The notes beneath the pieces are model-generated. The model was not told the origin of the DNA and made no database searches. It saw only the letters and a list, made by a program, of their open reading frames with translations. This document shows, piece after piece, positions 738-64,000 of a stretch of DNA of 64,000 nucleotides. Position numbers and translations under genes: made by a program. This DNA is from a virus. The stretch is taken from the IMG/VR virus record IMGVR_UViG_3300028182_000001, positions 64,001 to 128,000 of that record. One strand, written 5' to 3'. Positions within the stretch are counted from its first letter, which is position 1. Each line of letters opens with the position of its first letter.

Positions 738-3425
738 ATGGCAAGTGGCGGTTTTGACTTATCGACTAGTAATACCTACGTCAAAGGTAGGGTTAACTGG
801 TCTAGTACGGCAAATACAAATGAAAACTATAGTAATGTGTACGTGGAGATGCGATTCTCCCGTACCAACTCAGGGTATACAACATACGGTAGTGGTACAT
901 TCGGTATTTACGTAGACGGACAAGCAGTAGAGAATACTACAAGCTTCTCAATTACACAGAACTCTAACACACTAGTTGTAAGTGGTACAGTTCGAGTTAA
1001 CCATAATGCTGACGGTACGAAGAACTTTCGTATCGGGGCTAGTGGTTTCACAAACGTATTCAGTATCAACGAAGGTAGTACAACTGCTTATATGGATAAC
1101 ATCCCACGAGCAAGTACTATCTCGTCTAACGTAAGTTGGACCGCAGGAGTTAACAGTTTACCTGTAACGATTAACAGGGCGTCTAGTGCGTTCATCCATT
1201 ACGTAGAGTTACAAGTTAAGAACCCTATTAACGGATCGTGGGCTATTGTAGCTTCACGTTCTAACGTAGGTGACTCTGTAACATTCGATTTCAGTAAAGA
1301 CGAAATAACAAAGATGTACCAACAAATCGTAGCTTACGAGGAAACCCAAGCATGGATGAAAGTTGAGACATGGAACGGTGGAACATTTGTAGGTCGTAAT
1401 GAAAAGTATGGGACTGTATATGCCGCACCTACGGGAACTGCATCATACAACCAATGGGGTTCATTTGATATCGGTCAGAACATTACAGGTTGGGTTAATA
1501 ACCACATAAACGGATTCACTTACAACCTGACAATGAACTTCGGATCATTCTCACGTACTTGGAATAACGTACCTAAGGACTACACTTTATCGTTCTCTGC
1601 TGCCGAGATACAGACACTGTACGGGCAGACATCAACTGCGAATAGCAAGACAGGTACGATTACATGTCGAACACTCTATAACGGAGTGTACGCAGAGGAT
1701 GGGGCACCAGTAAGTAACGTTACTACATTTACACTAAATGTAAAGAGTAGTGACCCGACTTACGCAGGTGGATTTACATACTTAGATACAAACAGTACAA
1801 CTACAACACTAACAGGTAATAACCAATATATCGTACAAGGTAAATCTAAGTTACAGATTAAGTTACCTGCGGCCAATAAAGCTACGGCTAATAATGGGGC
1901 TACAATGTCTCGTTACGATGTTACAGTCAACGGGGTTACGCAGTCTGTTAACTACGCTACGACAGACCTTACGGTTAACTTTAACGAGGTAAACGCATCG
2001 TCAAATGCTACTGCAACAGTTACGGCAGTAGATAGTCGAGGTAACAAAGCATCTGCATCTTCTGTTATATTAATGCTACCTTATTCACCACCTGTTATTT
2101 CAGCTAGTGCGGATCGCTTAAACAACTTCGAGGACTCAACTACGATTAAGTTAAGTGGTTCAATATCTCCATTGACTATCAGCAGTGCGAATAAGAACTC
2201 ACTGACAGTTGTTAAATTCCAAAGAAGACAGGTAGGTGGTACATACGATAGTCCAGGAACTAACTTTACGATTACTGGGAATCCGAACTTCACTGCGACA
2301 GACGTTAAAGTAAACTTAGCTAATACTCTTGCTTGGGAGATTCTAATTACGGCTACGGACAAAGTAGGTTCTACTGTAACGTTAACACGTACGGTTCCAG
2401 TCGGTACTCCAATCTTCTTCATTGATACAGTGAAGAAAACAGTCGGAGTTAATAAGTTCCCTACTAGTGCGGCCAATGGTCTCGAAATAGCAGGTGACTT
2501 GGACGTTGATGGTATAATTAAAGCGAAAGCAGATCAGTGGATGGGTAATAGTAAAGTAGGGTTAGATATGCGTAACTCTGATATGAAAGGGCTAAACGGT
2601 CTATACTTCAATGACGCATCGGAATCAGGTGACGAAGGAATTAACTTCCTACGTTCAGGTAAAAGTGTAGGCTCTACAAATATAGCAGACTACGATAACT
2701 TCTGTCTCTATGACGGTGCATTTAGAATGAACAACCGAAATCTGTTTTGGCAAGAGGGCGGCCAAGCTTCGAACAACATCCGTTTAGCAGGAGATATGTA
2801 CTCACAAACTACAGGTGGGACTATCTTCGATGTATGGGGTAACATTAAAGGTCAGCCAACAGCAACGTCAATCAATACATGGTCAATCCAGGATGCTGAT
2901 GGACAAATTAGATTCCTCTGTGGTATCGGTAAGGGGGCTACAGCGACTACTGAGATTAGGTCGTATAATAGTGGGGGTATTAAGCTAATACATGACAACT
3001 ATTCAGTTGCTTCTTTTTGGCAACAAGGTGGAGGAAATCAACACATTATGCAACTAGGATCAGGTATACTTCAGTATTATAACAACTGGTTCGAATTTAA
3101 GGGACCTGGTAACTCAGGTTGGGGTAATGTGTATGGTAACTGGGTAGCACCTTCGTCAGAAGCTTATAAAAAAGACATCACTGTATTCGATGATAGTGCG
3201 TTATCTTACATACACTCTGTGAAACCTGTACTATACCAATACAAGGAACAAGACGAATCAGAGCCATATACACTAGGTTTAATTGCAGAGGAGTCTCCTG
3301 CAATCATTCAAGGAGCTAACGGTAAAGGTGTTAACGCCTACTCGATGATAACGTTACTTTGGAAAGCCATGCAAGAGATTGACGGAAAAGTAGAAAACAT
3401 TAACAGAAGAATAACACTAAGATAA
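738..3425 (+). CDS. Tail fibre/receptor-binding protein with DUF859-like N-terminus and C-terminal peptidase S74 intramolecular chaperone
   Basis: GGAGG RBS; Thr/Ser/Gly-rich beta repeats; C-terminal SSEAYKKDI...LGLIAEE...LLWKAMQEI coiled-coil end matches the S74 autocleaving chaperone pattern. Confidence 0.85.
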   Translation: MASGGFDLSTSNTYVKGRVNWSSTANTNENYSNVYVEMRFSRTNSGYTTYGSGTFGIYVDGQAVENTTSFSITQNSNTLVVSGTVRVNHNADGTKNFRIGASGFTNVFSINEGSTTAYMDNIPRASTISSNVSWTAGVNSLPVTINRASSAFIHYVELQVKNPINGSWAIVASRSNVGDSVTFDFSKDEITKMYQQIVAYEETQAWMKVETWNGGTFVGRNEKYGTVYAAPTGTASYNQWGSFDIGQNITGWVNNHINGFTYNLTMNFGSFSRTWNNVPKDYTLSFSAAEIQTLYGQTSTANSKTGTITCRTLYNGVYAEDGAPVSNVTTFTLNVKSSDPTYAGGFTYLDTNSTTTTLTGNNQYIVQGKSKLQIKLPAANKATANNGATMSRYDVTVNGVTQSVNYATTDLTVNFNEVNASSNATATVTAVDSRGNKASASSVILMLPYSPPVISASADRLNNFEDSTTIKLSGSISPLTISSANKNSLTVVKFQRRQVGGTYDSPGTNFTITGNPNFTATDVKVNLANTLAWEILITATDKVGSTVTLTRTVPVGTPIFFIDTVKKTVGVNKFPTSAANGLEIAGDLDVDGIIKAKADQWMGNSKVGLDMRNSDMKGLNGLYFNDASESGDEGINFLRSGKSVGSTNIADYDNFCLYDGAFRMNNRNLFWQEGGQASNNIRLAGDMYSQTTGGTIFDVWGNIKGQPTATSINTWSIQDADGQIRFLCGIGKGATATTEIRSYNSGGIKLIHDNYSVASFWQQGGGNQHIMQLGSGILQYYNNWFEFKGPGNSGWGNVYGNWVAPSSEAYKKDITVFDDSALSYIHSVKPVLYQYKEQDESEPYTLGLIAEESPAIIQGANGKGVNAYSMITLLWKAMQEIDGKVENINRRITLR

Positions 3426-3439
3426 GGAGTAAATAACCT

Positions 3440-3955
3440 ATGATATTTGATAACTTACCATTGTACGAGAGAGAACTAATCACAAAAGGTTTCGACAAGA
3501 TGGGGCAAGATTACCAAAACTCACTAATGAATGCTATCTCCCGTAAAACAGGACAAGCATTATGGCAAATCAGACCTGAGGATATCCTGAAGTACCACAA
3601 AGACTTAAAGACATCAATGCACAACGAGTTCTGTGAGTTGGCTATCGCAAGTGGGTTTATCGCTACGAACGGACACAGATACCGTACAAATGCAGACGAC
3701 CAAACGAACTTCCTTGGTAAACTGATTTTCTTAATAATGAAGCCCGAAACTACAGAAGTTGGTTGGAAAGCGGAAGACGTAGGAGACTACGTGATACATA
3801 CAAAAGAAGAGTGGTTACAAGTAGCTCTTGAAGGTTTCGCACATAAAGAGGTGCAACTAACAAAGTTCAACGAGAAGACGAAGACTATCAAAGCTGCTAC
3901 AACGCACGACCAAGTAGTGGCAGTATCTTGGAGTGGAGACGGACCGCACAAATAA
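3440..3955 (+). CDS. DUF4376-like tail fibre assembly/accessory protein
   Basis: GF...GHRY...DDQTN...WKAED pattern; immediately after the tail fibre gene. Confidence 0.55.
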   Translation: MIFDNLPLYERELITKGFDKMGQDYQNSLMNAISRKTGQALWQIRPEDILKYHKDLKTSMHNEFCELAIASGFIATNGHRYRTNADDQTNFLGKLIFLIMKPETTEVGWKAEDVGDYVIHTKEEWLQVALEGFAHKEVQLTKFNEKTKTIKAATTHDQVVAVSWSGDGPHK

Positions 3956-3976
3956 TAGAAACTAATAGGAGGAAAT

Positions 3977-4171
3977 ATGATGGAACAACAACCACAAGGT
4001 AAACCGATTAATCCGAAACACATCGTCAATGAACAGAAGGTAGTCATCTTCGACCTAATGAATGAGAACATCATGCTTAAAGCGTACGTAGCTCAGTTAG
4101 AAGAGAGTGCGGCTAAACTAGCAGAGGAGCTATCTGAGAGAGATATCGACAACGAACCACGAGAGGACTAA
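3977..4171 (+). CDS. Small coiled-coil hypothetical protein (tail region)
   Basis: AGGAGG RBS, 64 aa, operon position. Confidence 0.7.
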   Translation: MMEQQPQGKPINPKHIVNEQKVVIFDLMNENIMLKAYVAQLEESAAKLAEELSERDIDNEPRED

Positions 4172-4189
4172 ATAAGGGGGGAGTAGACT

Positions 4190-4700: not shown

Positions 4701-4726
4701 ATATTATAAAAGAGAGGTGATAATAC

Positions 4727-29374: not shown

Positions 29375-30505
29375 ATGACAGTAGAAAACAGAAAGAAAAT
29401 TAAATTATTACAACCAAAACAAAGTATGTTATATCCTAGTAAAATCTTAGCGAATGACGGAGTTAATAGTCTGAACTGGAATGATATTCGTTTCCCTCAG
29501 TTCCACACATTCTATGACAAAATGTTGGCTAATTTTTGGCGTGCAGAATCAGTTAAAATGAGCAAGGACGACCTTGACTATAAATCAGCACCTGAGAAAA
29601 TTCGTAAAGCTTATAACTTAGGACTGGGTAACTTAACGGCAATTGACGTTGTACAGACCCGTATGGCAAACATTCTATCGTTAGCTATCACAGACCCTTC
29701 TATTAGCGCTTGTTACGCAGTAGCAGGACAACAAGAAGCAGTACATACCCAATCTTACTCGTACGCTTTACTGGACAAGCTAGACAAAGCAGAACAGAAC
29801 CGTGTACTACGAGAAGCAGTTGCCGATCCTGTAGCACAAGAACGTAATAGTTTAGTAATCGCAGTCCTAGAAGAGATGGAAGATGCTTATAAGCTCTATA
29901 CGTTCAACGAGATTACGGCTCAAGAGTTCTCTAAATACTTAGCACGAGGGCTAGTAGCGATGTCAGTACTAGAAGGAGTAAACTTCTACTCTACGTTTAT
30001 GATGTTCTACTATATCCAACATCGTTATAGTATCCTAGATGGTACAGTAAGTATCATTCGTTACATCCATAAAGACGAGTTCCAACATACTTATCTGAAT
30101 GGTCATACACACCGTGCTCTATTAACGGACTACAAGATGACTGAAGAGGAAGAAGCAGAACACATTGAGTGGGCTACTAACTTCATTAAAGAGAACGTTA
30201 AACGTGAGATTAACTACGGAATTGATTTATTCACTACAATTAACGTACGTCCTTCTGAAATTGAAACATATATTACTTGGTTAGGTAATGTACGTGCTCA
30301 ATCACTAGGTCTACCGTTACCGTTCCCTGATGAGAAGTTCGCTGCTAATGAGAATCCGATCCCTTGGATGAAAGCATTTGATGATAGCCGTTTAGACGCA
30401 GGACAGAAGCAGGACTTCTTCGAGAAGACTGTAACTCAATACGAGCAATCAACAGCTGAGAACACAGAGATGAACCTAGCAGATTTATCTAAACTTCAGT
30501 TCTAA
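29375..30505 (+). CDS. nrdB: Class I ribonucleotide reductase beta subunit
   Basis: NFW, D ligand, EAVH..SY (radical Tyr), LEGVNFYSTF, DEFQH, DFFE. Confidence 0.93.
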   Translation: MTVENRKKIKLLQPKQSMLYPSKILANDGVNSLNWNDIRFPQFHTFYDKMLANFWRAESVKMSKDDLDYKSAPEKIRKAYNLGLGNLTAIDVVQTRMANILSLAITDPSISACYAVAGQQEAVHTQSYSYALLDKLDKAEQNRVLREAVADPVAQERNSLVIAVLEEMEDAYKLYTFNEITAQEFSKYLARGLVAMSVLEGVNFYSTFMMFYYIQHRYSILDGTVSIIRYIHKDEFQHTYLNGHTHRALLTDYKMTEEEEAEHIEWATNFIKENVKREINYGIDLFTTINVRPSEIETYITWLGNVRAQSLGLPLPFPDEKFAANENPIPWMKAFDDSRLDAGQKQDFFEKTVTQYEQSTAENTEMNLADLSKLQF

Positions 30506-30510
30506 ATTAG

Positions 30511-30541
30511 AGAAGAGGAAAATTCCTCTTCTTTTTTTTTT
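30511..30541 (+). terminator. Intrinsic terminator
   Basis: AGAAGAGGAA-aa-TTCCTCTTCT followed by T-run. Confidence 0.85.
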
Positions 30542-30547
30542 GTATAA

Positions 30548-30580
30548 GTTGTTGACTTATAGGAAACAATGATATAAGAT
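30548..30580 (+). promoter_or_regulatory. Phage early-type promoter (GTTGTTGACT -35)
   Basis: TTGACT-17-TAAGAT. Confidence 0.7.
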
Positions 30581-30604
30581 AACGTTAACGATATAAGAGA
30601 GGGC

Positions 30605-31261
30605 GTGTTGATGATGAAACATGATATTGAGAAGTATGACAGAATAACGGTAACACAAGAAGACGTGGAGCGTTTATTTGCTTGGAGAGATAAGAACAAA
30701 GAGTTAGTTCGAAACTTTAGTCCAGTATTGGAAGAAGGTGTTATCATAAACTCTGTAACACCACTTGTAAGGTACGTGTTCAAGAAAGAGGGGGATAGAT
30801 ACCTATATAGTATCATTAACAAGTCCGATGACGTAGTATTGCACGCATTAATATGGGATTATACTACAGGTGAAGGTGTAACTGCCCACACAATACTGGA
30901 TAACAGTCAAGCAAAAGACTACAACGAAACACTTATCTCCTTACATGCATCTTTAATGGCATACATGGAGCACTACCAAGATAACGAAGAGTATGTACGC
31001 AGACAGACGAACTCCGTTGTGGTAGGTCATAAGAAGCATAAGAAGTCCAAAAAGAAAACACCGATTAAGATACGTAGGAAGGTTTACTCACTTACAATTA
31101 CAGAGGAGAGCTTAAACGAAGTTACACGATCCTACGAACGCCAAATTGATAAATGGACTGTAAGAGGTCATTGGAGAAAAACAAAGAATGGTCAAGTATG
31201 GATTAAACCTCATGTCAGAGGAGAAGGGAAAGAAGTTACACCAAAAGAATATAAGTTGTAA
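30605..31261 (+). CDS. Hypothetical protein with C-terminal VRGHWR...WIKPHVRG motif
   Basis: 218 aa, Lys-rich linker, basic His/Trp motif; exact start uncertain. Confidence 0.65.
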   Translation: MLMMKHDIEKYDRITVTQEDVERLFAWRDKNKELVRNFSPVLEEGVIINSVTPLVRYVFKKEGDRYLYSIINKSDDVVLHALIWDYTTGEGVTAHTILDNSQAKDYNETLISLHASLMAYMEHYQDNEEYVRRQTNSVVVGHKKHKKSKKKTPIKIRRKVYSLTITEESLNEVTRSYERQIDKWTVRGHWRKTKNGQVWIKPHVRGEGKEVTPKEYKL

Positions 31262-31265
31262 AAAA

Positions 31266-31299
31266 GTTGTTGACTAAAAGACAACCTACATGCTATAGT
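31266..31299 (+). promoter_or_regulatory. Phage early-type promoter
   Basis: GTTGTTGACT-18-TATAGT with TG. Confidence 0.7.
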
Positions 31300-31323
31300 A
31301 AGTACAGAAGTTAAGAAAAGGAG

Positions 31324-31557
31324 ATGTTACAAATGAAAATAAACGAAACAGTTTATGTGAATGGTAACTTAGAGTACGCATCTGAGGATGGTGCAATCTA
31401 CGTAGTTATTGAACACGGTACAGGAGACATAATAGGTTTGGAGTATAATGACGCTACTGTCCACACTCTATACTCATTCATGTCAAAAGTAAAGTCTGCG
31501 TACAATAGACGTGCAACAAAACAAGCATTAGAAAATATATCAATAGGAGGAGAGTAA
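31324..31557 (+). CDS. Hypothetical protein
   Basis: AAGGAG RBS; start may be the second ATG. Confidence 0.65.
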   Translation: MLQMKINETVYVNGNLEYASEDGAIYVVIEHGTGDIIGLEYNDATVHTLYSFMSKVKSAYNRRATKQALENISIGGE

Positions 31558-31558
31558 C

Positions 31559-31837
31559 ATGAGATACACGTTAAAGAAAGCTTTAGTTGCTAGTAGAACT
31601 TCAAGTAGTGGACGAGTTGGTACTCCGATTCTAGGGTACTCTTTGCTAGATAGCGAAACAGGAGAAGTGAGTATCTATAGTAAATATGACGCTTACCGAT
31701 TCGTAAAGTACCACAAAGCTACAAACTGCGAAGCAAAGACACGTACGATGGTGGTAGACGGGGAAAGTGAAACAATCTATTACTTAAAACCAAATGACGG
31801 AACAAAAATGAACGAATATCTATTATCAGTAGAATAG
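31559..31837 (+). CDS. Hypothetical protein
   Basis: AGGAGG RBS, 92 aa. Confidence 0.7.
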   Translation: MRYTLKKALVASRTSSSGRVGTPILGYSLLDSETGEVSIYSKYDAYRFVKYHKATNCEAKTRTMVVDGESETIYYLKPNDGTKMNEYLLSVE

Positions 31838-31849
31838 GAGGAGAATAAT

Positions 31850-32164: not shown

Positions 32165-32165
32165 T

Positions 32166-32288: not shown

Positions 32289-32289
32289 A

Positions 32290-33075
32290 ATGAATAAAGC
32301 AATGGCACTTAAAAAAATGCAAACTGTACTAGCGGAGATGACGTTCCCTTGGGTATCAGAAAGAACGATCCTATTACTACCTTATGGAAGCCGCTTGTAT
32401 GGAACTGACACACTTGAGTCTGACTGGGACTTCAAAGGGGTGTGTATCCCTCCTAAAGATTTCTACTTAGGACTGAATACGTTTAATGAATTTAACAACA
32501 CTGGTGGAAAGACATTTAAAAATACCAAAGAAGATGTAGATGTAAACATCCTACATATCAGTAAGTTCGTTAAGGACGCTATGCAAGGTGTACCTAACAA
32601 TATCGAAATGCTATTTGCTAGACCTGAAGACTATATCAAAGTGACAGAACTTGGACAAGTCCTGCTAGATAACCGTCATTTATTCCTATCTAAACAAATC
32701 ATGAGAAAATTTGGCGGGTATACTACATCCTTAGTGAACAAGCTGAAAAATGGTGCAGGGCGTACCGAACTAATTGAAGCACATGGATATGACACAAAGA
32801 ATTTTATGCAAGGTGTTAGACTGTTAATCTCTGCAATCGAAATCTTAGAAACTGGTGATTACAGCACATACCGTACTGAGCAAGATTTCTTACTAGGTTG
32901 CCGAGGTGGAGATTACACGCTTAGACAAGCGCTAGGTGTCATCGAATACCATGAGGAAAGACTACAAGAAGCTTATGAGAAATCTGAGCTACCTGATAAA
33001 CCTGATTATGATAAGGTTAACAACATGTTAATGGGGATCAATGAAGACGCACTAAAATTCGGTATCCACCAATGA
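32290..33075 (+). CDS. Pol-beta superfamily nucleotidyltransferase (YcgL/RlaP-like, RNA-repair-associated family)
   Basis: YGSRLYGT...SDWDFKGV motif, PNNIEML, GYDTK, helical C-terminus ending LPDKPD. Confidence 0.85.
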   Translation: MNKAMALKKMQTVLAEMTFPWVSERTILLLPYGSRLYGTDTLESDWDFKGVCIPPKDFYLGLNTFNEFNNTGGKTFKNTKEDVDVNILHISKFVKDAMQGVPNNIEMLFARPEDYIKVTELGQVLLDNRHLFLSKQIMRKFGGYTTSLVNKLKNGAGRTELIEAHGYDTKNFMQGVRLLISAIEILETGDYSTYRTEQDFLLGCRGGDYTLRQALGVIEYHEERLQEAYEKSELPDKPDYDKVNNMLMGINEDALKFGIHQ

Positions 33076-33314
33076 ACACGATGTACGTATGGGAAATACT
33101 ATACAAACAAGGGGAGAAAGCAAAGTCGGTCACACTAAATGGGATTAATCCTATTAAAGTAGTAGAGACATTACAACGTATACAGTACGATAAAAGTATG
33201 AGGATAGTAGTTTACTGCGTGGATGCAGTAGGGCACATCAATAAATCGACTGGTGAGATTGTAACACTACCGCTAATGTTCGAAGGTAAGAAAGCAAAAT
33301 ATAGTACTAAGTAG
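33072..33314 (+). CDS. Hypothetical protein
   Basis: ATGA overlap with the upstream gene. Confidence 0.65.
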   Translation: MNTMYVWEILYKQGEKAKSVTLNGINPIKVVETLQRIQYDKSMRIVVYCVDAVGHINKSTGEIVTLPLMFEGKKAKYSTK

Positions 33315-33342
33315 AGCAGGTTTCCGCAACCTGTTCTTTTTT
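33315..33342 (+). terminator. Intrinsic terminator
   Basis: AGCAGGTT-tccgc-AACCTGTT followed by CTTTTTT. Confidence 0.75.
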
Positions 33343-33417
33343 CTGTTTATGGTATAATTAAGGTAACGGTATACCAATCATTGTTGTGTCTGAAAATTCA
33401 GAATTGGAGAGATAAAC

Positions 33418-33465
33418 ATGGAATATACAAATTGGCAAGAAGAAATTGGACGAGGTGAAATCTAA
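33418..33465 (+). CDS. Candidate 15 aa leader peptide (MEYTNWQEEIGRGEI)
   Basis: GGAGAG upstream; its TAA overlaps the ATG of the next gene (TAATG). Confidence 0.35.
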   Translation: MEYTNWQEEIGRGEI

Positions 33466-34223
33466 TGGCTAGAAAGAAATCATTAAATATCTTTAATACA
33501 GATAGAGCATACAATATTAACTTAACTACAGTACAAGAGGAAGGTAGTTTCATTAAAGTTACAAAATTGAACGAAGAAGAAATCGAACAAGAGATGGATC
33601 AGTTAAAAGAAGAATCGGTTCGATTTAATATGCGTAACGATAAAAGGTACCTCCTATTTAAACAGCGATACGCTAACGATACATTACACGAGAAGATTAT
33701 TAATCACGGTGGCTACATTAAATATTACAGTGACGGTAGAGTGCCGATCCCTGTAATCAATCAGTTATCCAGTGTACCACAATCAGAAGTAATTTACTTA
33801 TGTAAGAAAGAGCATACAATTGATGACGTATTGAATGTGCAACTAGCATCTATGGCAACGAGTGTCGTAGTAGATGTACCGATTGTACTTCCCGATATCA
33901 ACGTGTACGATTATCTATTCTCGTTGTATCCACTACGCTATCATGTGGACAAGGTTAGAATTTCCTTCCCTCCTTTACGAGAAGATGAGATACAGGATCG
34001 ACATAAAAAGTTCTACACACTTTATAATGGTATGTATCATCTCAAAGCAAAATACAAATACCAATGTTTCTGCTACCTACAGGAGCCACTATCAACATGG
34101 AAAATGAATATTTGGCTTACGTGTGATTCTCAGAAAGATAAGAAGATGGTAGAGGACTTAGTACTAAAAGATAATAAGCGTTTCAGACGTATGGAGAATC
34201 CTTTCGTAACGGAGGGAAACTAG
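33465..34223 (+). CDS. Conserved hypothetical protein
   Basis: GAGGTG RBS; 252 aa preceding the HU-like gene. Confidence 0.7.
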   Translation: MARKKSLNIFNTDRAYNINLTTVQEEGSFIKVTKLNEEEIEQEMDQLKEESVRFNMRNDKRYLLFKQRYANDTLHEKIINHGGYIKYYSDGRVPIPVINQLSSVPQSEVIYLCKKEHTIDDVLNVQLASMATSVVVDVPIVLPDINVYDYLFSLYPLRYHVDKVRISFPPLREDEIQDRHKKFYTLYNGMYHLKAKYKYQCFCYLQEPLSTWKMNIWLTCDSQKDKKMVEDLVLKDNKRFRRMENPFVTEGN

Positions 34224-34224
34224 T

Positions 34225-34524
34225 ATGACGGTGAATAGAAAAGAGATTGCAAGACGTGCGGCCCACATCGGTAACTACGATATCGGTGGGACAGAAGAAC
34301 TAACAAAGATAATCGAAGATGTTATCGTTAGTGCCCTAGCAAACGGGGAAAGTGTGAAGTTCGGTAAAGTATGTAAATGGGATATCGAGGAAGTACCTGA
34401 GAAGAGAGCATACGATGGTCTAAATAAAAAGTATTTTACTAGACCAGCGAAGCGCATACCGAAATACAAGCCACTAAAACGACTTACAGATATTGAGCTG
34501 CCAGTACAAAAGAAAGAGGAGTAA
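34225..34524 (+). CDS. HU/IHF-like DNA-binding protein (TF1-like)
   Basis: NRKEIARR...ALANGESVKFG...PAKRIPKYKP..L fold signature. Confidence 0.8.
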   Translation: MTVNRKEIARRAAHIGNYDIGGTEELTKIIEDVIVSALANGESVKFGKVCKWDIEEVPEKRAYDGLNKKYFTRPAKRIPKYKPLKRLTDIELPVQKKEE

Positions 34525-34540
34525 CGATCCTCTTTTTTCT
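34513..34540 (+). terminator. Intrinsic terminator
   Basis: AAAGAGGA-gtaacga-TCCTCTTT followed by T-run. Confidence 0.75.
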
Positions 34541-34550
34541 TTGTAATTTA

Positions 34551-34582
34551 TTGTTGACTTATAGACAAAGTTACAGTAATAT
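34551..34582 (+). promoter_or_regulatory. Early-type promoter of the methyltransferase pair
   Basis: TTGTTGACT-17-TAATAT. Confidence 0.7.
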
Positions 34583-34625
34583 TATCTACAGATACAGAAT
34601 ACATTATTAAGTTGAGGAGGTAATC

Positions 34626-35648
34626 ATGGACGAACTAAGAGTAGTAGAACTGTTTGCAGGATACGGTAGCCAATCAATGGCACTGAAACGAGCAAACATC
34701 AATTATAAAACTGTAGCGATTGCAGAGATTGATAAGGACGCACTGGTTTCTTATGAAGCAATCCACGGCAAACCAAATAACCTTGGAGACATTACCAAGG
34801 TAAGAGGAGAAGACGTTCCTGACCACGACTTCATGACGTATTCATTCCCTTGTACAGACATCTCTGTATCAGGTGCGATGAAAGGTCTATTGGAAGGTTC
34901 AGGTACAAGCTCTAGTACGTTATGGGATGTAAAGAGAGTAATAGAAGCGAAGAAACCTAGATTCCTAATGATGGAAAACGTAGACAACCTTGTTATCAAA
35001 TTCATGGACGACTACCTACTATGGTTAAAGTACCTAGAATCACAAGGGTATGCTACATCGTGGAAAGTTATTGACGCATCTCCTTACGTACCACAAAGAC
35101 GTAAACGTGTTATAGCAATCTCTCGATTAGATGGACAGGCATTCCCGTTCCCTGAAGACCCTACGGAGCGTACATATGATTTAATAGACGTGCTAGAGGA
35201 GTTCGATGATGCAGAAGCATTAGAGAGCTTTAAAGACCCTACAGTGCGAAGTGCTACAGTAGACCCTGTTACATATTATAACCCGAATTCAGATTACTAT
35301 AAACTGCAACCTGAGAATAGTAGAGCATCATTCATTGGATACATAGGGAACCAACCGAAACAGGCTACACGAGTATATGAACCTATCACGGCTTCAACGT
35401 TGACTGCTAATGGTGGCGGCCAAGGTGGGAAGACAGGTCTGTATCACCTAGGTACGCATATCCGAAATCTTAGTCCGTTAGAAGCGTGGCGCATCATGGG
35501 TGTGAGTGACGAGGACTTCTACAAGGCAAAAGCAACAGGTATCAAGAAGACCCAACTACTACGTCAAGCAGGGAACTCTATCGTAGTTGATATCATGGTA
35601 CCAATATTTGAAAAGCTCTTTAAAGATTATATGAAGGAGACAAAATAA
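34626..35648 (+). CDS. DNA (cytosine-5) methyltransferase 1
   Basis: ELFAGYGS (I), SFPC (IV), MENV (VI), PQRRKR (VIII), variable region, R.LSPLEAWRIMG (IX), QAGNSI (X). Confidence 0.93.
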   Translation: MDELRVVELFAGYGSQSMALKRANINYKTVAIAEIDKDALVSYEAIHGKPNNLGDITKVRGEDVPDHDFMTYSFPCTDISVSGAMKGLLEGSGTSSSTLWDVKRVIEAKKPRFLMMENVDNLVIKFMDDYLLWLKYLESQGYATSWKVIDASPYVPQRRKRVIAISRLDGQAFPFPEDPTERTYDLIDVLEEFDDAEALESFKDPTVRSATVDPVTYYNPNSDYYKLQPENSRASFIGYIGNQPKQATRVYEPITASTLTANGGGQGGKTGLYHLGTHIRNLSPLEAWRIMGVSDEDFYKAKATGIKKTQLLRQAGNSIVVDIMVPIFEKLFKDYMKETK

Positions 35649-35649
35649 T

Positions 35650-36315
35650 ATGACAAAGAAGAAACTAAAAGTACTAGAATTATTTGCTGGCACGAGGTCA
35701 GTAGGTAAAGCATTCGAAGCACAGGGACACGAGGTATATAGTGTTGAGTGGGATCAGAAACATCCAGGAATCCATTGGTACGCAGATATATCGAAAATCA
35801 CTGCACAGGAAATCATCGAACGCTTTGGTAAACCTGATATCATTTGGGCTAGTCCTGATTGTACAAGCTACTCAGTAGCAGGTATCTCGCATCACCGTAG
35901 AAAGGATGACGATGGTAACTTACGTCCTATTAGTGAGTATGCCCAATTCTGCGACACTACAAACCAACACGTAGTAGATTTAATTCGAGAACTTCAACCG
36001 AAGTACTACTTCATTGAGAATCCTCGTGGTGGAATGAGAAAGATGAACTTCATGCAGGATGACGCATTACCGAATGGTGGTAAACGTTACACAGTTACAT
36101 ATTGCCAGTACGGGGACACTCGTATGAAGCCAACTGACTTATGGACTAACCATCCTGAGCCGAAGTTTAAAGAGCCTTGTAAAAATGGTATGCCTTGTCA
36201 CGTAGCTGCCCCTCGTGGAAGCGCAACAGGTACACAAGGTATAAAAGGGTCTGTAGACCGTTCACGCATCCCTGAGGAGCTATGCAACCACGTAGCGAAG
36301 ATTTCTGAAGAGTAA
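35650..36315 (+). CDS. Short DNA (cytosine-5) methyltransferase-like protein 2
   Basis: ELFAGTRS (I), WASPDC (IV), IENP (VI), YCQYG...KPT, C-terminal RSRIP; only 221 aa. Confidence 0.8.
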   Translation: MTKKKLKVLELFAGTRSVGKAFEAQGHEVYSVEWDQKHPGIHWYADISKITAQEIIERFGKPDIIWASPDCTSYSVAGISHHRRKDDDGNLRPISEYAQFCDTTNQHVVDLIRELQPKYYFIENPRGGMRKMNFMQDDALPNGGKRYTVTYCQYGDTRMKPTDLWTNHPEPKFKEPCKNGMPCHVAAPRGSATGTQGIKGSVDRSRIPEELCNHVAKISEE

Positions 36316-36321
36316 AAGATT

Positions 36322-36348
36322 GAGAGGTGTAACAACCTCTCTTTTTTT
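36322..36348 (+). terminator. Intrinsic terminator
   Basis: GAGAGGT-gtaaca-ACCTCTC followed by T-run. Confidence 0.8.
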
Positions 36349-36360
36349 GTGTCTATTATC

Positions 36361-36392
36361 TTGTTGACTTATAGTGTATGATATAGTACTAT
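36361..36392 (+). promoter_or_regulatory. Early-type promoter
   Basis: TTGTTGACT-17-TACTAT. Confidence 0.6.
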
Positions 36393-36425
36393 TATAGAAG
36401 ATTATATGGAGGAGGAGAGGACATT

Positions 36426-36584
36426 ATGCCAAAGTTTTTGCAACTTGTTTTATGTGGATTACTTTTAGCAGGAGGGACAGACGACTGGATTAAAGATAGT
36501 ATCCCGTCCGCCGTGTTCTTCTATGTTGTAGGTATAGGGCTACTGATTCATTTGTTTTTCCGATTCCTAGATGAACAGTACTAA
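36426..36584 (+). CDS. Small (52 aa) membrane protein, not in the ORF track
   Basis: GGAGGAGGAGAGG RBS; two hydrophobic segments; TAA at 36582-36584. Confidence 0.65.
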   Translation: MPKFLQLVLCGLLLAGGTDDWIKDSIPSAVFFYVVGIGLLIHLFFRFLDEQY

Positions 36585-36599
36585 TAAGGAGGACGTAAC

Positions 36600-39500
36600 T
36601 TGAAAGCATTATTTCTACAAGAGTTTGTAAGAGAAAGTCACATGCAACGACAGAATGATGGATCGTTTAAAAACATATTCCTCCAAACTAACGGAGGAAA
36701 GCTGCTAAAGAAACTAATCCATGAAGGGTTAGAGCTAACGAAGAATGACTACTACATCGACTATGCGTTCTTCAAAGTACCTGAGGTTATTACTCGGGAT
36801 AATCGAGATAGAGCCATTAAGTACAAACCACCAACTGCAAAAGAATCGAAACCTGAATACGAGAACTTATACAAACGTATCGTACAGGACAAGCCTGACA
36901 TTATCATTCCTTCAGGTAAACTTGGGTGTAAAGCTCTACTGAATGTAGCAGAGATTTCTAAGCTACGAGGAGTACCACAACAAGTTACAATCACTGCAAA
37001 TATTGAAATGTTTGATGAGAGCGCAGTTGTTGAAGGTGTAGATAACTCAGGTTGGATTACAGAAACGTATACACATACATGTTGGGTTATGCCTATATAC
37101 AGTATGGAATACATGCTTGTTAATCCGAAGATTCAGAACTTAGTAGAAGCAGACTTCGGTACATTGAAGAAGTACGTAGAGCAAGGTGACAACGCATTTA
37201 TTGCGAAGGATGTAAAGTACGAAGATGTTACAACTATTGAACGTGTACGAGAAATCTTCACCAAGATAGTAAAAGAAGCTCCTATCGTAGCGTGGGATTT
37301 AGAGACCAATACGTTAGAAGCCGATAAAGCAGGTTCTAAACCACTAGTAATCTCTCTTTGTTGGAAAGAGGGTACAGGTGTAACCATTCCGTTAGAACAT
37401 AAGGACTGGACATGGCTTCCTGGTCACTTAGCTGAGATTTACAACTACATAAAAGAATTTGTTGCCGATCCGAAGATTGTTAAAGTCGGACACAACATCA
37501 AGTTCGATATCAGGTTCCTACGCTTATCTAGAGGGTTTACAGAGTTCAATAACCATCGTGATACAAAAACAATGTACTACCTACTTGTAAACCAGGATGT
37601 AAAAGGTTCATTACGTCTATCCGACTTAACATTCGAATTTACAGATATGGGTGGATATGATAGAGCGCTAGAGGACTTTAAAAAGGATTACAAAGAGAAC
37701 TACAAGAAGAACGAGAAAGAACGTATTGCAAAACTAAAAGAAGAATTTAAAGCGCAATGTGCAAAAGAAAGAGCAGAAGTACAACAGCAAGTGAAGGACG
37801 CAAAAGCAGAATTACGTTTACTCAAGAAGGAATCTCCAACGACTGAAATTCTTAATAGAATAACAGAGTTACAGGAGATTGCACAACGTAAGTATGTGAA
37901 ACCTTCGATGCCTGACTTTGGGACCGCAGGTTCACCAGTCAATCCTGTAGACGGATCGGACTTCTGTTATGAGTGGATTCCACTATTCGAAATGCTTTCT
38001 CCGTACGCTAGTGGTGACGTAGACGTGTGTTTACGTATCTATAACCAACTAGACCAAAGATGTCAGCAAAAAGGCTTAGAGCACATTAGAGAGCTTTATA
38101 CGAATCATTATCCACAACTATCTGCAACACTTGCTAAAATCGAAGCAACGGGAATCAAGTTAAACATCCCGTACGTACAAGCACTAGCAGATGCGTACCA
38201 AAAGGAAGAGGATCGTTTAACGGCAATCATCCGTAAGTTCCCTGAAGTAAAGCAAATGGAAGACGAACATCGCCAGCTTTACCAAATGGGATTAAACGAA
38301 CTTGCAAAGCCTGTAGCTGAGAGAGACAAGAAGATAGCGGCCTTACGTGATAAGTACAAGGACAAGCTAGAGTTTAACGCAAACTCTCCTGACGACAAGA
38401 AAGAGGTACTGTACAAGATTACAGGCATTCGACTACCGTTCGATAAAGAGCGTCTAGTAGACTCTGTATTCGAGAAGGGACTAAAAGAGGAAGAGATTGA
38501 ATGGTGCCATTACAAAACGAATACTGCGAACTTGGAGTACATCGCCAAGGAGTATCCTGAGTACAAGGAACTAGCAGAAGTTATGATCCATCACTCACTC
38601 GTTAAAACACGTAAGCAAAGTTTCACGTACAAGTTCCTTAGTATGGTAGATATGAACGATATCTTGCACGGTACGTTCAACCCTGAAGGTACAGAAACAT
38701 CTCGTCTATCGTCAAAAGACCCGAACTGTCAGAACTTCCCTCGTAAGACGGAAGATGTAACACGGTTCGACTATCAGCACCCTATTAAACGAATGTTCGT
38801 AAGTAGATTCACAAACGGAGCACTACTACAACTCGATTACTCTTCACTTGAATCTCGTATCATGGCTTTAATTGCATACGATGAGGAAATGATTGAAGCG
38901 TTCTTAACGAAGAAGGATGTACATACGCACACTGCTTCACTGGTATTCAAAAAGGCAGAAGAAGATGTAACAGGTGATGAACGTACGGCCGCTAAACGGG
39001 TAACATTCGGACTAGCGTACGGAGAAGCACCATTCTCGTTCGCACCTAAATACAACATGACAATCCAAGAAGCAGAGAAACTATTTGATGACTACTTCAA
39101 GAACAAACCGAAGATTAAAACGTACATTGATGAAACGAAAGAGAAAGCTAGACAGACGGGTTATATCTCTTGTATGCAAGGTTTCACTCGTAACTTACGA
39201 GATGTGTATTCGCAAGATAAACAGAAACGTAATGGTGCGTTACGTCAGTCTGTAAATACACAGGTACAGGGATCGGGTGCATTCTTAACGAATAACTCAT
39301 TAATCTACATCAACAACATTATTGAGAAGCAGGGACTACGTTCTCGTATCGTTCTAACTGTACACGATAGTATTGTTATAGATTGTCCACCCGAAGAAAT
39401 TCACATCATGGCTCACATCGGTAAAACAGTAATGGAGAACTTACCGATCCCTTGGTTACACATCGAGTGGAAAGGTGAAACAATTCGATTCCCTATTACG

Positions 39501-39716
39501 GCAGATGTGGAGATTGGTACAACATACAACGATATGGTTAACTACGATAAGGACGAACTAAACACGTTCCAAAAAGTAGAGAACTACTGTAAGTATCATA
39601 TGGACTTAAAGAGCGTGAAGCATTACAAAGAGTCAGGTATCATCACAGAAGAGAAAGCAAAAGAGCTAAAGGCTACGATTGAATCCAAAAAACAAGCGTA
39701 CCAAACGGCTGTATAA
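36600..39716 (+). CDS. polA: Family A DNA polymerase with N-terminal uracil-DNA-glycosylase-like domain and 3'-5' exonuclease
   Basis: WDLET, GHNIKFD, YASGDV exonuclease motifs; TSRLSS.DPN.QN, DYSSLESR (A), RTAAKRVTFGLAYG (B), VHDS (C); uninterrupted ORF. Confidence 0.95.
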   Translation: MKALFLQEFVRESHMQRQNDGSFKNIFLQTNGGKLLKKLIHEGLELTKNDYYIDYAFFKVPEVITRDNRDRAIKYKPPTAKESKPEYENLYKRIVQDKPDIIIPSGKLGCKALLNVAEISKLRGVPQQVTITANIEMFDESAVVEGVDNSGWITETYTHTCWVMPIYSMEYMLVNPKIQNLVEADFGTLKKYVEQGDNAFIAKDVKYEDVTTIERVREIFTKIVKEAPIVAWDLETNTLEADKAGSKPLVISLCWKEGTGVTIPLEHKDWTWLPGHLAEIYNYIKEFVADPKIVKVGHNIKFDIRFLRLSRGFTEFNNHRDTKTMYYLLVNQDVKGSLRLSDLTFEFTDMGGYDRALEDFKKDYKENYKKNEKERIAKLKEEFKAQCAKERAEVQQQVKDAKAELRLLKKESPTTEILNRITELQEIAQRKYVKPSMPDFGTAGSPVNPVDGSDFCYEWIPLFEMLSPYASGDVDVCLRIYNQLDQRCQQKGLEHIRELYTNHYPQLSATLAKIEATGIKLNIPYVQALADAYQKEEDRLTAIIRKFPEVKQMEDEHRQLYQMGLNELAKPVAERDKKIAALRDKYKDKLEFNANSPDDKKEVLYKITGIRLPFDKERLVDSVFEKGLKEEEIEWCHYKTNTANLEYIAKEYPEYKELAEVMIHHSLVKTRKQSFTYKFLSMVDMNDILHGTFNPEGTETSRLSSKDPNCQNFPRKTEDVTRFDYQHPIKRMFVSRFTNGALLQLDYSSLESRIMALIAYDEEMIEAFLTKKDVHTHTASLVFKKAEEDVTGDERTAAKRVTFGLAYGEAPFSFAPKYNMTIQEAEKLFDDYFKNKPKIKTYIDETKEKARQTGYISCMQGFTRNLRDVYSQDKQKRNGALRQSVNTQVQGSGAFLTNNSLIYINNIIEKQGLRSRIVLTVHDSIVIDCPPEEIHIMAHIGKTVMENLPIPWLHIEWKGETIRFPITADVEIGTTYNDMVNYDKDELNTFQKVENYCKYHMDLKSVKHYKESGIITEEKAKELKATIESKKQAYQTAV

Positions 39717-39732
39717 TTTCTGTAACTTTTTG

Positions 39733-39761
39733 TTGACACACAGAATAGGATAGTGTAATAT
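39733..39761 (+). promoter_or_regulatory. sigmaA-type promoter followed by a 5' hairpin
   Basis: TTGACA-17-TAATAT; AAGAGAAGAGAC-aagca-GTTTCTTCTCTT immediately downstream. Confidence 0.7.
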
Positions 39762-39820
39762 ACTAAGAGAAGAGACAAGCAGTTTCTTCTCTTTAGTTTA
39801 AAGGATAGAGGTGAGAGTAT

Positions 39821-40360
39821 GTGCTAGATGTTAAAGTTGACAGCATAGATTTTCAGGAGCTTAGAATCATTGATGAAAACGGAGAGTATATCATGTTCGA
39901 CATGCGAGAAGAGTTAAAGGTGAATGAAGCCAACCTTCTCCAAGAAATGTTACATCAACCTTCGAAGTACATCTATTGGTCTTCTATTCTTGAAAAAATC
40001 AAATTCTTCCAAGAGAAGACAGAAATGCAGTTAGAGCTTGTTGTTGCAAAGTTTGATTCCGAAGCACGAGAGGAAATCAAGAAGAACGGGGACAAGCCTA
40101 CAAAGGATAGCGTAGATGCTTACATAAAACAAAAGCAAGAATACGTAACTGCAAGAGAGCAATGTCACTATTACGAGTACATTGCAGGAAGACTTGCACG
40201 GATCGTAAAAGCATTTGAACAACGTAAAGATATGTTACAGTCTTATGGTAAGCAAATTGCCGAGGATAAAACATATGGAGCAGGTGCAGGTTCTCGTATT
40301 GAGCAGACACAGTTTCCTGTACCAACACAACAAACGCAGTATTGGGGAGGTCATCAATAA
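39821..40360 (+). CDS. UvsY-like recombination mediator (helical)
   Basis: QPSKYIYW...KPTKDSVDAYI...AFEQRKDMLQS pattern; upstream of SSB and RecA. Confidence 0.55.
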   Translation: MLDVKVDSIDFQELRIIDENGEYIMFDMREELKVNEANLLQEMLHQPSKYIYWSSILEKIKFFQEKTEMQLELVVAKFDSEAREEIKKNGDKPTKDSVDAYIKQKQEYVTAREQCHYYEYIAGRLARIVKAFEQRKDMLQSYGKQIAEDKTYGAGAGSRIEQTQFPVPTQQTQYWGGHQ

Positions 40361-49549: not shown

Positions 49550-50065
49550 ATGTTTTACATGAAATTAGATTACGGATCAGGAAGACAACCAAAGCAAGGA
49601 TTCAAGTCATCGGACTTTATCGGTACACCGTGTTACGACTTCTACATCAAGGATTACAGAGTACTAGACTTAGCAGATAATACGTGCGATGTTATTCATT
49701 GCCGTAACGTGATTCACCACATTCCAAAGGAAGACTTACCGATCCTATTCGGAGAGTTCAAGCGTTTATTAAAGCCAGGTGGACAATTAATCATCTCAGA
49801 GCCACGAGAAGAGTTCCACGAACAAAACTTATTGCTGGACCTTATTTGGTACCGTTGGGTGAACTACGATACAAACATTATGATTCCTTACGAGTATGTA
49901 AACTATAAGAAGTATCTAACGGACTTCACGCTGCTTGATACAGTGGATGAGTATAACAACGAGATTCTTACATACGTAGTAAATAAACCAGTACAAAAAA
50001 TTACACGTAGAACAGGAGTGTTAGTATGGTCATCGAACTCAAAACGATCTCTTATTACGAACTAG
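49550..50065 (+). CDS. Class I SAM-dependent methyltransferase (Methyltransf_11-like)
   Basis: LDYGSG, D.IHCRNVIHHI, RLLKPGG.LII.EP motifs. Confidence 0.8.
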   Translation: MFYMKLDYGSGRQPKQGFKSSDFIGTPCYDFYIKDYRVLDLADNTCDVIHCRNVIHHIPKEDLPILFGEFKRLLKPGGQLIISEPREEFHEQNLLLDLIWYRWVNYDTNIMIPYEYVNYKKYLTDFTLLDTVDEYNNEILTYVVNKPVQKITRRTGVLVWSSNSKRSLITN

Positions 50066-61767: not shown

Positions 61768-61788
61768 GGACTATCCCTAGTTTTTCTT
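61762..61788 (+). terminator. Intrinsic terminator
   Basis: AACTAGGGA-cta-TCCCTAGTT followed by T-run. Confidence 0.8.
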
Positions 61789-62816: not shown

Positions 62817-62830
62817 GGAGGGAATAGCCA

Positions 62831-63310
62831 ATGAGTGGAGTAGTTGATGTTACACAGTATGAGAAGATTGACTACGTGGCGTACACATCGTTACGTGATA
62901 AGTTAGAAGCGCTTCTGAGGGGAGAGGTGCTTCTTGTTAAAAACTTCGAGCGCAGAATGAATCTTGATGTACTCATTCGAGTAGTGGATAAACGATTCAC
63001 TGTAACGCAGATGACGTACGATATCGTAGAAGACCCAAGCAATGCGAGATACTGGGTTACATTTAATGTAGGGATCAATGACTTATCGTTATTCTCTGTC
63101 TTCAAATTCGAGGATAAAATCTTCAGTTATACGAATAAGTTCAGAATAGACGACCGAGTGGATTACATTAGTGCTACAGGTAAAAAGGACGCGGCCATTG
63201 TAGAAGAAGTATACATATCCAAGACCGATCCTGAAGTGTTTGCTTACAAACTATCCAGGGAAGATAACTTATATGAAGAGAAGGATTTAATCGCAATCCG
63301 TCCTATGTAA
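62831..63310 (+). CDS. Hypothetical protein
   Basis: AAGGAGG RBS, 159 aa. Confidence 0.7.
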   Translation: MSGVVDVTQYEKIDYVAYTSLRDKLEALLRGEVLLVKNFERRMNLDVLIRVVDKRFTVTQMTYDIVEDPSNARYWVTFNVGINDLSLFSVFKFEDKIFSYTNKFRIDDRVDYISATGKKDAAIVEEVYISKTDPEVFAYKLSREDNLYEEKDLIAIRPM

Positions 63311-63343
63311 TACAGAGTCTAAAAAACTCTGTATTTTTTTTTT
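63309..63343 (+). terminator. Intrinsic terminator
   Basis: AATACAGAGT-ctaaaaa-ACTCTGTATT followed by T-run. Confidence 0.85.
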
Positions 63344-63350
63344 GTTTATT

Positions 63351-63383
63351 TTGTTGACAGTAGGACAACCTATATGATATTCT
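63351..63383 (+). promoter_or_regulatory. Early-type promoter
   Basis: TTGTTGACA-18-TATTCT with TG. Confidence 0.65.
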
Positions 63384-63428
63384 TTGGTTACAGAAGTTAT
63401 TACAGTTTTTTGAGGAGGAAAGAAAGTC

Positions 63429-64000
63429 ATGAGTAAAGTTGAAAAGCTAAACACCGAGACAGACTTTAGAGAAGAGGATAGTCTCTTCCAACCAACACTA
63501 CATACAGTAAGTCAGCAAGAAGAAAAAATCGCAAAGGACTACCAAAACGGTTTAGGGATTACTGACCTAACGAAGAAGTACGATGTATCAGTTGGTACAG
63601 TGTACAACGCACTACGTAGACAAAAGGTTACACTTCGAAAAGGGATGTACAATTCACGAGCAGGTAATCGTTTGCTCACAATGACAACTTTAGAGAAAGA
63701 TAGTTTAGTAGAAGATTACTTATCAGGTATGGCAATGACTGCAATTTATAAAAAGCACCGTATCAATAAGCATGGCTGCTACACGATCCTAGATGAGCGC
63801 AGTGTCGCAAGACGAGGTGGTTCACGAATGGGAGCAGGTAAGAAGGTTGAGAAGGAACAAGATAGTGAGCAATTAGATTTACTCCTCGATGCGTTAGAGA
63901 CTGGTAAGATTCGAGATATAGAAGCTCACATCGAGGGTGAGACACTTCATGTGAAAGTTACAGTCATTCCTACGGTAAAGTTAGAGAGCATCAATGTAGT
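63429..64000 (+). CDS. Tandem-HTH protein (3' end outside the window)
   Basis: GAGGAGG RBS; DYQNGLGITDLTKKYDVSVGTVYNALRR and DYLSGMAMTAIYKKHRINKHGCYTILDE repeats. Confidence 0.75.
   Translation, partial: MSKVEKLNTETDFREEDSLFQPTLHTVSQQEEKIAKDYQNGLGITDLTKKYDVSVGTVYNALRRQKVTLRKGMYNSRAGNRLLTMTTLEKDSLVEDYLSGMAMTAIYKKHRINKHGCYTILDERSVARRGGSRMGAGKKVEKEQDSEQLDLLLDALETGKIRDIEAHIEGETLHVKVTVIPTVKLESINV

Follow-up and report, generated by a model that had tools for sequence, protein, structure and literature searches.

Results

GATC survives almost only inside GGATC

We analysed a stretch of 64,000 nucleotides (the window), bases 64001-128000 of the complete 158,403-bp genome, with terminal repeats, of a phage represented by IMG/VR virus record IMGVR_UViG_3300028182_000001, and found that the tetranucleotide GATC occurs in it almost solely within the hexamers GGATCR/YGATCC. 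Word counts and comparison with related phages point to a methylase shield over GGATC, which we consider probable; the composite explanation that we favour, with a little less assurance, combines restriction pressure, this phage-encoded shield and selection on the density of sites. The candidate enzymes are encoded by two adjoining genes, here called M1 and M2, that lie upstream of the DNA polymerase gene polA.

The window holds 109 GATC, 99 of them (91%) in GGATCR/YGATCC; these shielded sites extend from 1233 to 63790, and the mean gap between GATC is 579 bp. CGATCC (44) and GGATCG (27) make up 71 of the shielded sites, GGATCA (17) and TGATCC (11) the other 28. An original prediction, made by eye from the letters, had put roughly 100-110 GATC in the window, about 90% of them as GGATC/GATCC with GGATCG/CGATCC in the majority and about ten exceptions, and had seen no GGATCC, AGATCT, GGATCT/AGATCC or TGATCA. 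Counting reproduced all of this, with exactly ten exceptions and zero for each of the four words; the coordinates given were one base off for GATC itself, as at the first site the hexamer begins at 1233 and its GATC at 1234. The exceptions comprise AGATCA (three), AGATCG (two) and one each of TGATCT, TGATCG, CGATCT, CGATCG and CGATCA. The first of them, an AGATCA, occupies 2531-2536, and the nine further unshielded hexamers start at 6190, 9493, 12282, 25825, 50045, 51891, 53477, 54163 and 60413. The whole genome (G000) contains 292 GATC, 268 of them as GGATCR/YGATCC, and GGATCC, AGATCT and TGATCA are all absent from it.

The 16 NGATCN contexts were compared with a null of 300 synonymous-codon shuffles of the whole genome. 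GGATCG (80 observed against 33 expected, 2.4-fold, z 9.7) and CGATCC (105 against 38, 2.8-fold, z 16.7) were in excess, in agreement with the several-fold excess proposed from the letters, GGATCA and TGATCC stood at expectation, and the remaining 12 contexts reached at most 0.14 of it (z -3.8 to -7.4). GGATCG occupies all three reading frames and is found in sense (81) and antisense (85) orientation and in intergenic DNA (19), so that it passed the proposed check of frame and strand independence. The wider consensus around the site is (C/A)GGATCG(T/G), and GGATCR lies on the plus strand at 126 sites and on the minus strand at 142. An artefact of codon pairs or amino acids in a single reading frame would draw on nothing but the general frame bias of any coding genome; occurrence of the word in all frames, both orientations and intergenic DNA excludes the codon-pair explanation, the codon-shuffled null gives z of 10-17, and the pattern is missing from methylase-free relatives that have the same proteins, so that we give an artefact practically no chance.

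Related phages purge GATC and one clade exempts GGATC

By DNA, the closest relatives (84-87% identity) are Bcp1, BM15/Hobo, JBP901, BCP8-2, Deep Blue and Thurquoise, myophages of the Bacillus cereus group placed in Caeruleovirus, subfamily Bastillevirinae, family Herelleviridae. The clade set consisted of five whole Caeruleovirus-type genomes and PK16. As comparison genomes without M1/M2 genes we used G005 and G006 (far outgroups), TsarBomba, MarvelLand, SBSphiJ1 and Goe7, plus Eldridge. SBSphiJ1, Goe7 and Eldridge are phages of the B. subtilis group; TsarBomba (NC_028890.1) and MarvelLand (MN013089.1) are B. thuringiensis phages and belong to the nearest sister genus, Tsarbombavirus (loci L073-L089).

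In five myophages of the B. cereus group that represent four further genera or lineages (vB_BcgM, Anthony, BillyBob, Kida and Abinadi), GATC numbers 0-1 per 160 kb against 520-620 expected, with GGATC purged to zero as well, and both Listeria phage A511 and Staphylococcus phage Team1 have zero GATC. These counts demonstrate severe selection against GATC in phages of B. cereus-group hosts. In the six clade genomes (the five and PK16), M1 and M2 adjoin polA and 87-92% of GATC is GGATCR; among the genomes compared, GATC is confined to GGATC in Caeruleovirus genomes only. Genes and footprint thus occur together in six genomes, and the footprint is missing from fourteen genomes without an M1/M2-type match and from Eldridge. 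Between relatives, a change of the flank alone that exposes a site as AGATCG was seen 3 times, against 35 changes of GGATCG to GGATCA and 153 losses of the core, and this rarity suggests selection against exposing sites.

Related B. cereus-group phages display three strategies toward GATC, namely total purge, shielded retention and unexplained retention. TsarBomba and MarvelLand keep about 340 GATC in mixed contexts, though sister genera have none, and no DNA methylase or TGT-type gene was found in Tsarbombavirus with the N6_N4_Mtase, D12, Dam and TGT profiles.

Avoidance of RGATCY and TGATCA is an older layer

RGATCY is zero in every relative that retains GATC (G005, G006, SBSphiJ1, Goe7, Eldridge, TsarBomba and MarvelLand), with or without methylase genes. 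All these relatives lack a C5-methylase gene except Eldridge, which has a split and unrelated match to PF00145. TGATCA is also zero in Tsarbombavirus and Eldridge, and GATC in these comparison genomes is spread over contexts, unlike in Caeruleovirus. Since RGATCY is zero in methylase-free relatives too, the R of GGATCR lies outside the protected word, which would be GGATC; the R reflects an older, separate avoidance common to methylase-free relatives. An N4-methylcytosine (m4C) methylase for RGATCY and TGATCA is recorded in B. amyloliquefaciens (PMC3459991), so such systems exist in the genus. Outright avoidance of RGATCY and TGATCA had been claimed from the window, and the whole genome has no site of either. 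RGATCY, TGATCA, CCGG and CGCG all lie far under expectation in all contexts and frames, as avoided palindromes do; GATC overall does not, since it survives in one context.

Surviving CGCG points to a modified cytosine in GGATC

CGCG occurs 5 times in the genome against 93 expected, and four of the five are GGATCGCG; the only CGCG of the window, at 63190-63193, overlaps GCGGCC. In GGATCGCG, the C of GATC is the first C of CGCG. Of the CGCG remaining in the five clade genomes, 30 of 36 are GGATCGCG, and in PK16 all 4 are, against a share expected by chance of 0.007 per CGCG site (P about 1e-58, counting related genomes as independent). Tolerance of CGCG almost only as GGATCGCG would mean, as an indirect argument, that the C of GGATCG is modified. 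CGCG survival thus appears as a sign of a modified C in GGATC that is independent of the GATC counts.

GGCC behaves in a parallel manner. All 72 GGCC of the genome, 27 of which lie in the window, are GGCCGC/GCGGCC, and the NotI site is absent. The identity of all GGCC with GGCCGC was checked on the whole genomes of G000 and PK16 and on 15-24 kb polA loci of the other clade members, and GGCC was zero in all methylase-free relatives examined. GGWCC was GGWCCGC in 20 of 26 cases and GGWCCWG in the other six. The restriction of GGCC to GGCCGC would be a parallel methylase footprint in the same genomes. CCGG is absent from the genome against 161 expected and numbers 0-2 in the clade genomes. In comparison with distant relatives, GAGGC, CGACG, CGCCG, CCCGC, CTTAAG, GCAGGC, CTCCAG and GAGCTC are near-absent and CAGC is 3.5-fold lower. 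These word losses look like a very broad restriction-avoidance landscape.

It could be argued that there is no shield: host GATC endonucleases might cut poorly after a preceding G, so that the effective site is HGATCD and GGATC is invisible to them, not methylated. The avoided set minus RGATCY is indeed exactly HGATCD, and methylation of GGATC is an inference from sequence. This explanation, however, accounts neither for the survival of CGCG only as GGATCGCG nor for the coincidence of confinement with the methylase cassette, five other B. cereus-group phages purged GGATC to zero too, and the parallel restriction of GGCC to GGCCGC is found in the same genomes. We regard it as unlikely. The second modification specificity put forward in the original prediction stands in part: cover of GGATC fits, as the pattern is found in the methylase-bearing clade only and CGCG is tolerated as GGATCGCG, but GGATCR as the word does not, since its R belongs to the older avoidance.

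Two C5-methyltransferase-like genes precede polA

M1 (34626-35648, plus strand) encodes a C5-cytosine DNA methyltransferase of 340 amino acids with a full-length match to PF00145 (E 1.4e-51; 176 bits against a cut-off of 22; model positions 2-324 of 324). Its nearest solved structures are M.HhaI (GCGC) and a cytosine-specific methyltransferase of 395-403 amino acids (4dkj, 8c56). The alignments are full-length, including the target-recognition region, and that with M.HhaI covers residues 4-325. The catalytic motifs can be read in the translation as FAGYGS (FxGxG), FPC (PC), ENV, QRRKR (QxRxR) and GNSIVV (GN(S/A)), and M1 is predicted to be a complete C5-methyltransferase with all motifs.

M2 (35650-36315, plus strand) starts 2 bp after M1 and encodes a compact C5-methyltransferase-like protein of 221 amino acids. 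It matches only the N-terminal positions 1-113 of the PF00145 model (33.8 bits against a cut-off of 22) but the full length of phrog_757, 'DNA methyltransferase'. Its family of proteins of about 210 amino acids is very large and highly conserved, with at least 8000 candidates at E 1e-5; the best 120 of these are 209-286 amino acids long and 69-96% identical, several coming from named Bacillota, and proteins of Enterococcus, Mammaliicoccus, Oceanobacillus, Heyndrickxia and Bacillus are among them. An AlphaFold2 (AF2) model built with an alignment had a predicted local distance difference test (pLDDT) value of 81.7, with low confidence at residues 186-197, and its top Foldseek matches were M.HaeIII, DNMT1/3 and M.HhaI (E 6e-8). 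C71 in SPDC and E123-N124-P125 are invariant in 26 homologues, as is the Cys/His-rich C-terminus. M2 is thus modelled as a C5-methylase fold with a conserved catalytic cysteine. At 221 amino acids its recognition module is minimal, and neither QxRxR nor GN(S/A)V is recognisable; we found no description of the family's target word in the literature.

Directly downstream, the family A DNA polymerase gene polA (36600-39716, plus strand) anchors the cassette. The N-terminus of the polymerase has a weak uracil-DNA-glycosylase-superfamily match (residues 32-176, E 0.0015), below cut-off. In the phage collection, copies of M1 at 85% identity or more, and of M1 and M2 at 76% or more, occur only in the 21 records of the clade. 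The cassette keeps its position upstream of polA in relatives, but its size varies: this phage and BCP8-2 have two methylase genes, Bcp1, BM15 and JBP901 have three, and PK16 has four. The variation was seen at about 8730-9720 in L006, L007 and L009 and at 86642-90623 in PK16. As for other modification genes, the N6_N4_Mtase, D12, Dam and TGT profiles were all negative in this phage. At 49550-50065 of the window there is a clade-specific open reading frame (ORF) of 171 codons whose product matches generic class I S-adenosylmethionine (SAM)-methyltransferase domains (Methyltransf_23/11/25) over their C-terminal part only. An RlaP-like (Pol-beta superfamily) nucleotidyltransferase gene at 32290-33075, 1.5 kb upstream of the methylases, is common only to Caeruleovirus and Tsarbombavirus, the two GATC-retaining genera, among 16 related genomes compared. 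Window positions 30000-39900, with both methylase genes, were near-complete in contigs of 24 soil runs from 24 studies (2018-2019), 23 of the 24 runs being recorded as metatranscriptomes; going by these contigs, the phage or a near-identical one is common in those soils.

GGATCG is made anew and the sites are evenly spaced

Clade genomes contain 190 GGATCG on average; the far outgroups have 50 and TsarBomba 38. Conversion of the flanks of ancestral GATC was rejected as the source of this excess, as TsarBomba has a GATC at only 28 of the 158 sites that could be aligned, and GGATCA is what the expected flows favour. In the codons at the sites, the amino acid is retained at 0.746 against a background of 0.735, and the synonymous difference is 58% against 41%; of 1174 positions at which GGATCR can be encoded synonymously, 242 (about 20%) are occupied. 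These codon comparisons demonstrate that GGATCG has evidently been made anew by synonymous changes.

A repair bias, which the original prediction had considered in its methylation-linked form, would create GATC by very-short-patch correction of T:G to C:G linked to GAT5mC, the sites surviving only where shielded. Among gains by a single step, a T-to-C change at the fifth position is the most frequent (5 of 13), and GGATCG to GGATTG is the commonest core difference. A search with the Vsr profile (PF03852), however, found no Vsr in the phage, GGATTG and GGATTA are enriched 1.4-1.8-fold (GGATTG 1.4-fold) instead of depleted, half of the gains need at least two changes and the rest take varied mutational paths, and such a bias leaves the spacing unexplained. 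The idea did not hold up, and we consider it very unlikely.

The coefficient of variation (CV) of gaps between GATC or GGATC was 0.62-0.71 in six genomes (0.62 in the window), about 680 other words of similar abundance having a median of 1.04, and GATCC was the lowest-CV word in G000 and G003, the two genomes so ranked. Random draws from encodable positions gave a CV of 1.03 +/- 0.06, against 0.857 observed for coding sites. Gaps shorter than 100 bp numbered 4 in the window (17 expected) and gaps longer than 1500 bp 2 (8 expected); genome-wide these classes reached 0.2-0.3 and about 0.4 of expectation, and no gap exceeded 3 kb. The pair correlation was 0.31, 0.66, 0.74 and 0.93 in successive 100-bp bins, a hole that extends to 300-400 bp, and it had no periodic peaks, lattice-like periodicity not being seen. 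GGCCGC sites lack the even spacing.

Whatever the distance, neighbouring sites have the same orientation in about half of cases. The union of orientations (CV 0.67) is more regular than either strand (0.79 per strand), so that the two orientations avoid each other. Strand-specific spacing of a primase- or Chi-like kind was rejected on this ground, an opposite-strand nick model because close pairs are equally rare in same and opposite orientation, and a per-gene signal because site positions within genes are uniform. Random orientation excludes polar or strand-specific signals, and the polar recombination signal suggested in the original prediction falls with them.

When a site occurs only in this phage, the relative compared has one of its own, absent here, no more than 200 bp away in 26-43% of cases (16-23% expected by chance), and new sites avoid shared ones; site turnover is compensatory. 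Unshielded sites sit in gaps, at a median of 259 bp from the nearest shielded site against 159 bp for random positions (p 1e-9, five genomes). Individual sites are modestly conserved (divergence 0.099 against 0.139 in flanks). Tsarbombavirus has its GATC at roughly neutral abundance; the CV of GATC in TsarBomba and MarvelLand is 0.75-0.78, rank 1 of about 360 words, and the GATCA/TGATC subset is the most evenly spaced (0.64-0.66 for GATCA). The far outgroups have at most a faint spacing trend. We take selection on the density and spacing of sites, of a stabilising kind for density, to be shown by these data, and the claim that GGATCG is positively maintained is supported by its excess, its synonymous creation de novo and its kept spacing.

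The same features could be accounted for if GGATCG served chiefly to be bound or cut by a protein of phage or host and were required at intervals of about 0.5 kb, for example for nicking in recombination-dependent replication or for a nucleoid-type protein, with methylation secondary or absent and other GATC lost to ordinary restriction avoidance. Excess, new synonymous creation, even spacing, compensatory turnover and the extended consensus are all as such a signal would require, and GATC(A) is equally spaced in methylase-free Tsarbombavirus. Searches for a reader or nuclease were negative, however. MutH and Dam were absent from the phage in profile searches, so that no GATC nuclease was found with the MutH profile; the RE_AlwI profile was also negative, weakly so, as its control matched nowhere; and ORFs that are clade-specific or common only with Tsarbombavirus contained nothing nuclease- or reader-like in Pfam or PHROGs, the clade-specific ones being without informative domains. 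Moreover, conservation of individual sites is no more than modest, GATC is entirely missing from sister genera, and the CGCG evidence still requires a modified C. We regard a signal of this kind as doubtful. A protein of 678 amino acids encoded at 144426-146462 of G000 (L068:16426-18462) has no Pfam domain and belongs to phrog_1735 (function unknown); TsarBomba has it at 76% identity, and ten other Bastillevirinae genomes lack it.

Discussion

A methylase shield as the proposed explanation

Our data are consistent with the following course of events. The clade would have escaped GATC pressure by means of a C5-methyltransferase, M1, M2 or the pair acting on two strands, that places its methyl group on the cytosine of GGATC, an asymmetric word (GGAT5mC). 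Systems of the Sau3AI type protect their own DNA by methylation at C5 of this very cytosine; an enzyme of this kind would then be blocked, and GATC outside GGATC would have been purged. Most likely, one methylase, or the pair on two strands, makes GGAT5mC. The weakest steps of the proposal concern spacing: short-range avoidance between sites may be the residual risk from a two-site, DNA-looping GATC endonuclease, and excess and gap-filling may mean that GATC serves some positive function, independent of strand, at intervals of roughly 0.5-1.5 kb.

Several points weigh against this explanation. The shield is a reading of sequence statistics, and the related genomes are non-independent samples. 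GGATC can be attributed to neither methylase individually: no k-mer footprint was tied to the presence or absence of the third methylase or the extra cassette genes, small phages with M2-family genes (62-78% identical) have no GGATC confinement, and assignment to M1 or M2 through other carrier phages was given up, as L064, L065, L186, L188 and L189 have no footprint. TsarBomba retains about 340 GATC, so that either its hosts lack GATC restriction or it has another protection. Methylation of GGATC on a single strand leaves half of the daughter duplexes briefly unprotected, and this adds to the difficulty of accounting for the site excess. Sister genera do without any GATC, so that positive use of GATC is not general. 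Finally, the pair correlation never overshoots 1, and the spacing could therefore be pure repulsion plus a separate site-making force.

The spacing may stem either from the footprint of a two-site enzyme combined with a site-making force or from a hidden use of the sites. Two-site looping fits the orientation-free, short-range avoidance but cannot lift GGATCG above neutral abundance or fill long gaps. Positive use of GATC would explain excess, gap-filling and the similar totals of the two genera (about 300 and 340). We tentatively entertain, as a possibility well short of even, that GATC pentamers (GGATC in Caeruleovirus, GATCA in Tsarbombavirus) are a distributed, strand-independent cis-signal needed every 0.5-1.5 kb or so, for instance in replication that is nick-primed or recombination-dependent, in the loading of clamps or in a protein lattice that protects the DNA, and that the shield evolved to keep this signal in hosts that destroy GATC-bearing DNA.

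Orphan phage methylases and the complete loss of GATC are both textbook knowledge. Four things appear new: GATC is purged conditionally, around a methylase word that is asymmetric; CGCG, itself purged, serves to locate the modified base; close relatives contrast in following three different strategies; and the sites are evenly spaced with compensatory turnover. For none of these four was a description found in the literature searched, nor was there one of GATC confined to GGATC or evenly spaced in phages. From sequence by itself, GGAT5mC can be proposed, in testable form, as the target of a phage methylase that is uncharacterised, next to a GGCCGC footprint. A narrow asymmetric methylase word may decide which restriction sites a 158-kb genome retains, and a spacing constraint on restriction-type words points to a two-site endonuclease footprint or to hidden use of GATC. 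The results also indicate words that should not be introduced when phages are engineered against B. cereus.

Comparison with known systems

The closest precedent is Staphylococcus phage K, whose loss of GATC has been attributed to Sau3A, an enzyme whose cognate methylase acts at C5 of cytosine (PMC6532042). Word, kind of host enzyme and family (Herelleviridae) are the same, and the sister genera studied here show the complete purge. Unlike in phage K, the purge in this phage is conditional: about 300 sites are left, nearly all of which share one asymmetric context; they exceed expectation and are evenly spaced.

The orphan C5-methyltransferases of SPbeta, phi3T, SPR, rho11 and H2 are also phage-borne, have no partner nuclease and protect against host Type II enzymes. 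SPbeta-type enzymes have 440-500 amino acids, are multispecific and cover whole palindromic targets, so that their phages need not purge. The enzymes considered here are small in comparison, the words proposed for them, GGATC and GGCCGC, cover a subset of GATC and GGCC, and the genome appears remodelled around them. An orphan enzyme of Bacillus phages for GGCC/GCNGC/GDGCHC is listed in PMC3459991.

In overlap blocking, a site is protected by a methyl group that belongs to an overlapping word, be this different, longer or shifted, and GGATCGCG is an example of this here. Overlapping methylation (Dam, Dcm, CpG) blocks restriction enzymes and is known from catalogues as a bench nuisance. Here, by contrast, it would be an evolutionary force deciding which sites a genome keeps.

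Sau3AI loops DNA between two sites, with short loops favoured (PMC1474071). Like other two-site enzymes of Type IIE/IIF, it is orientation-independent, and it acts on GATC; the interaction range of such enzymes, tens to a few hundred bp, matches the range of site avoidance found here. Looping alone, however, leaves the GGATCG excess unexplained, and no description of a genome-wide spacing footprint of two-site endonucleases was found in the literature searched.

Dam-GATC, in MutH-directed repair, and Chi, in RecBCD/AddAB action, are distributed words with a coverage role. The sites of this phage are unlike Dam-GATC, as MutH and Dam are missing, and unlike Chi, as orientation is random and the two orientations avoid each other. 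They resemble both in that a short word lies within a limited distance of any point and that long gaps are selected against.

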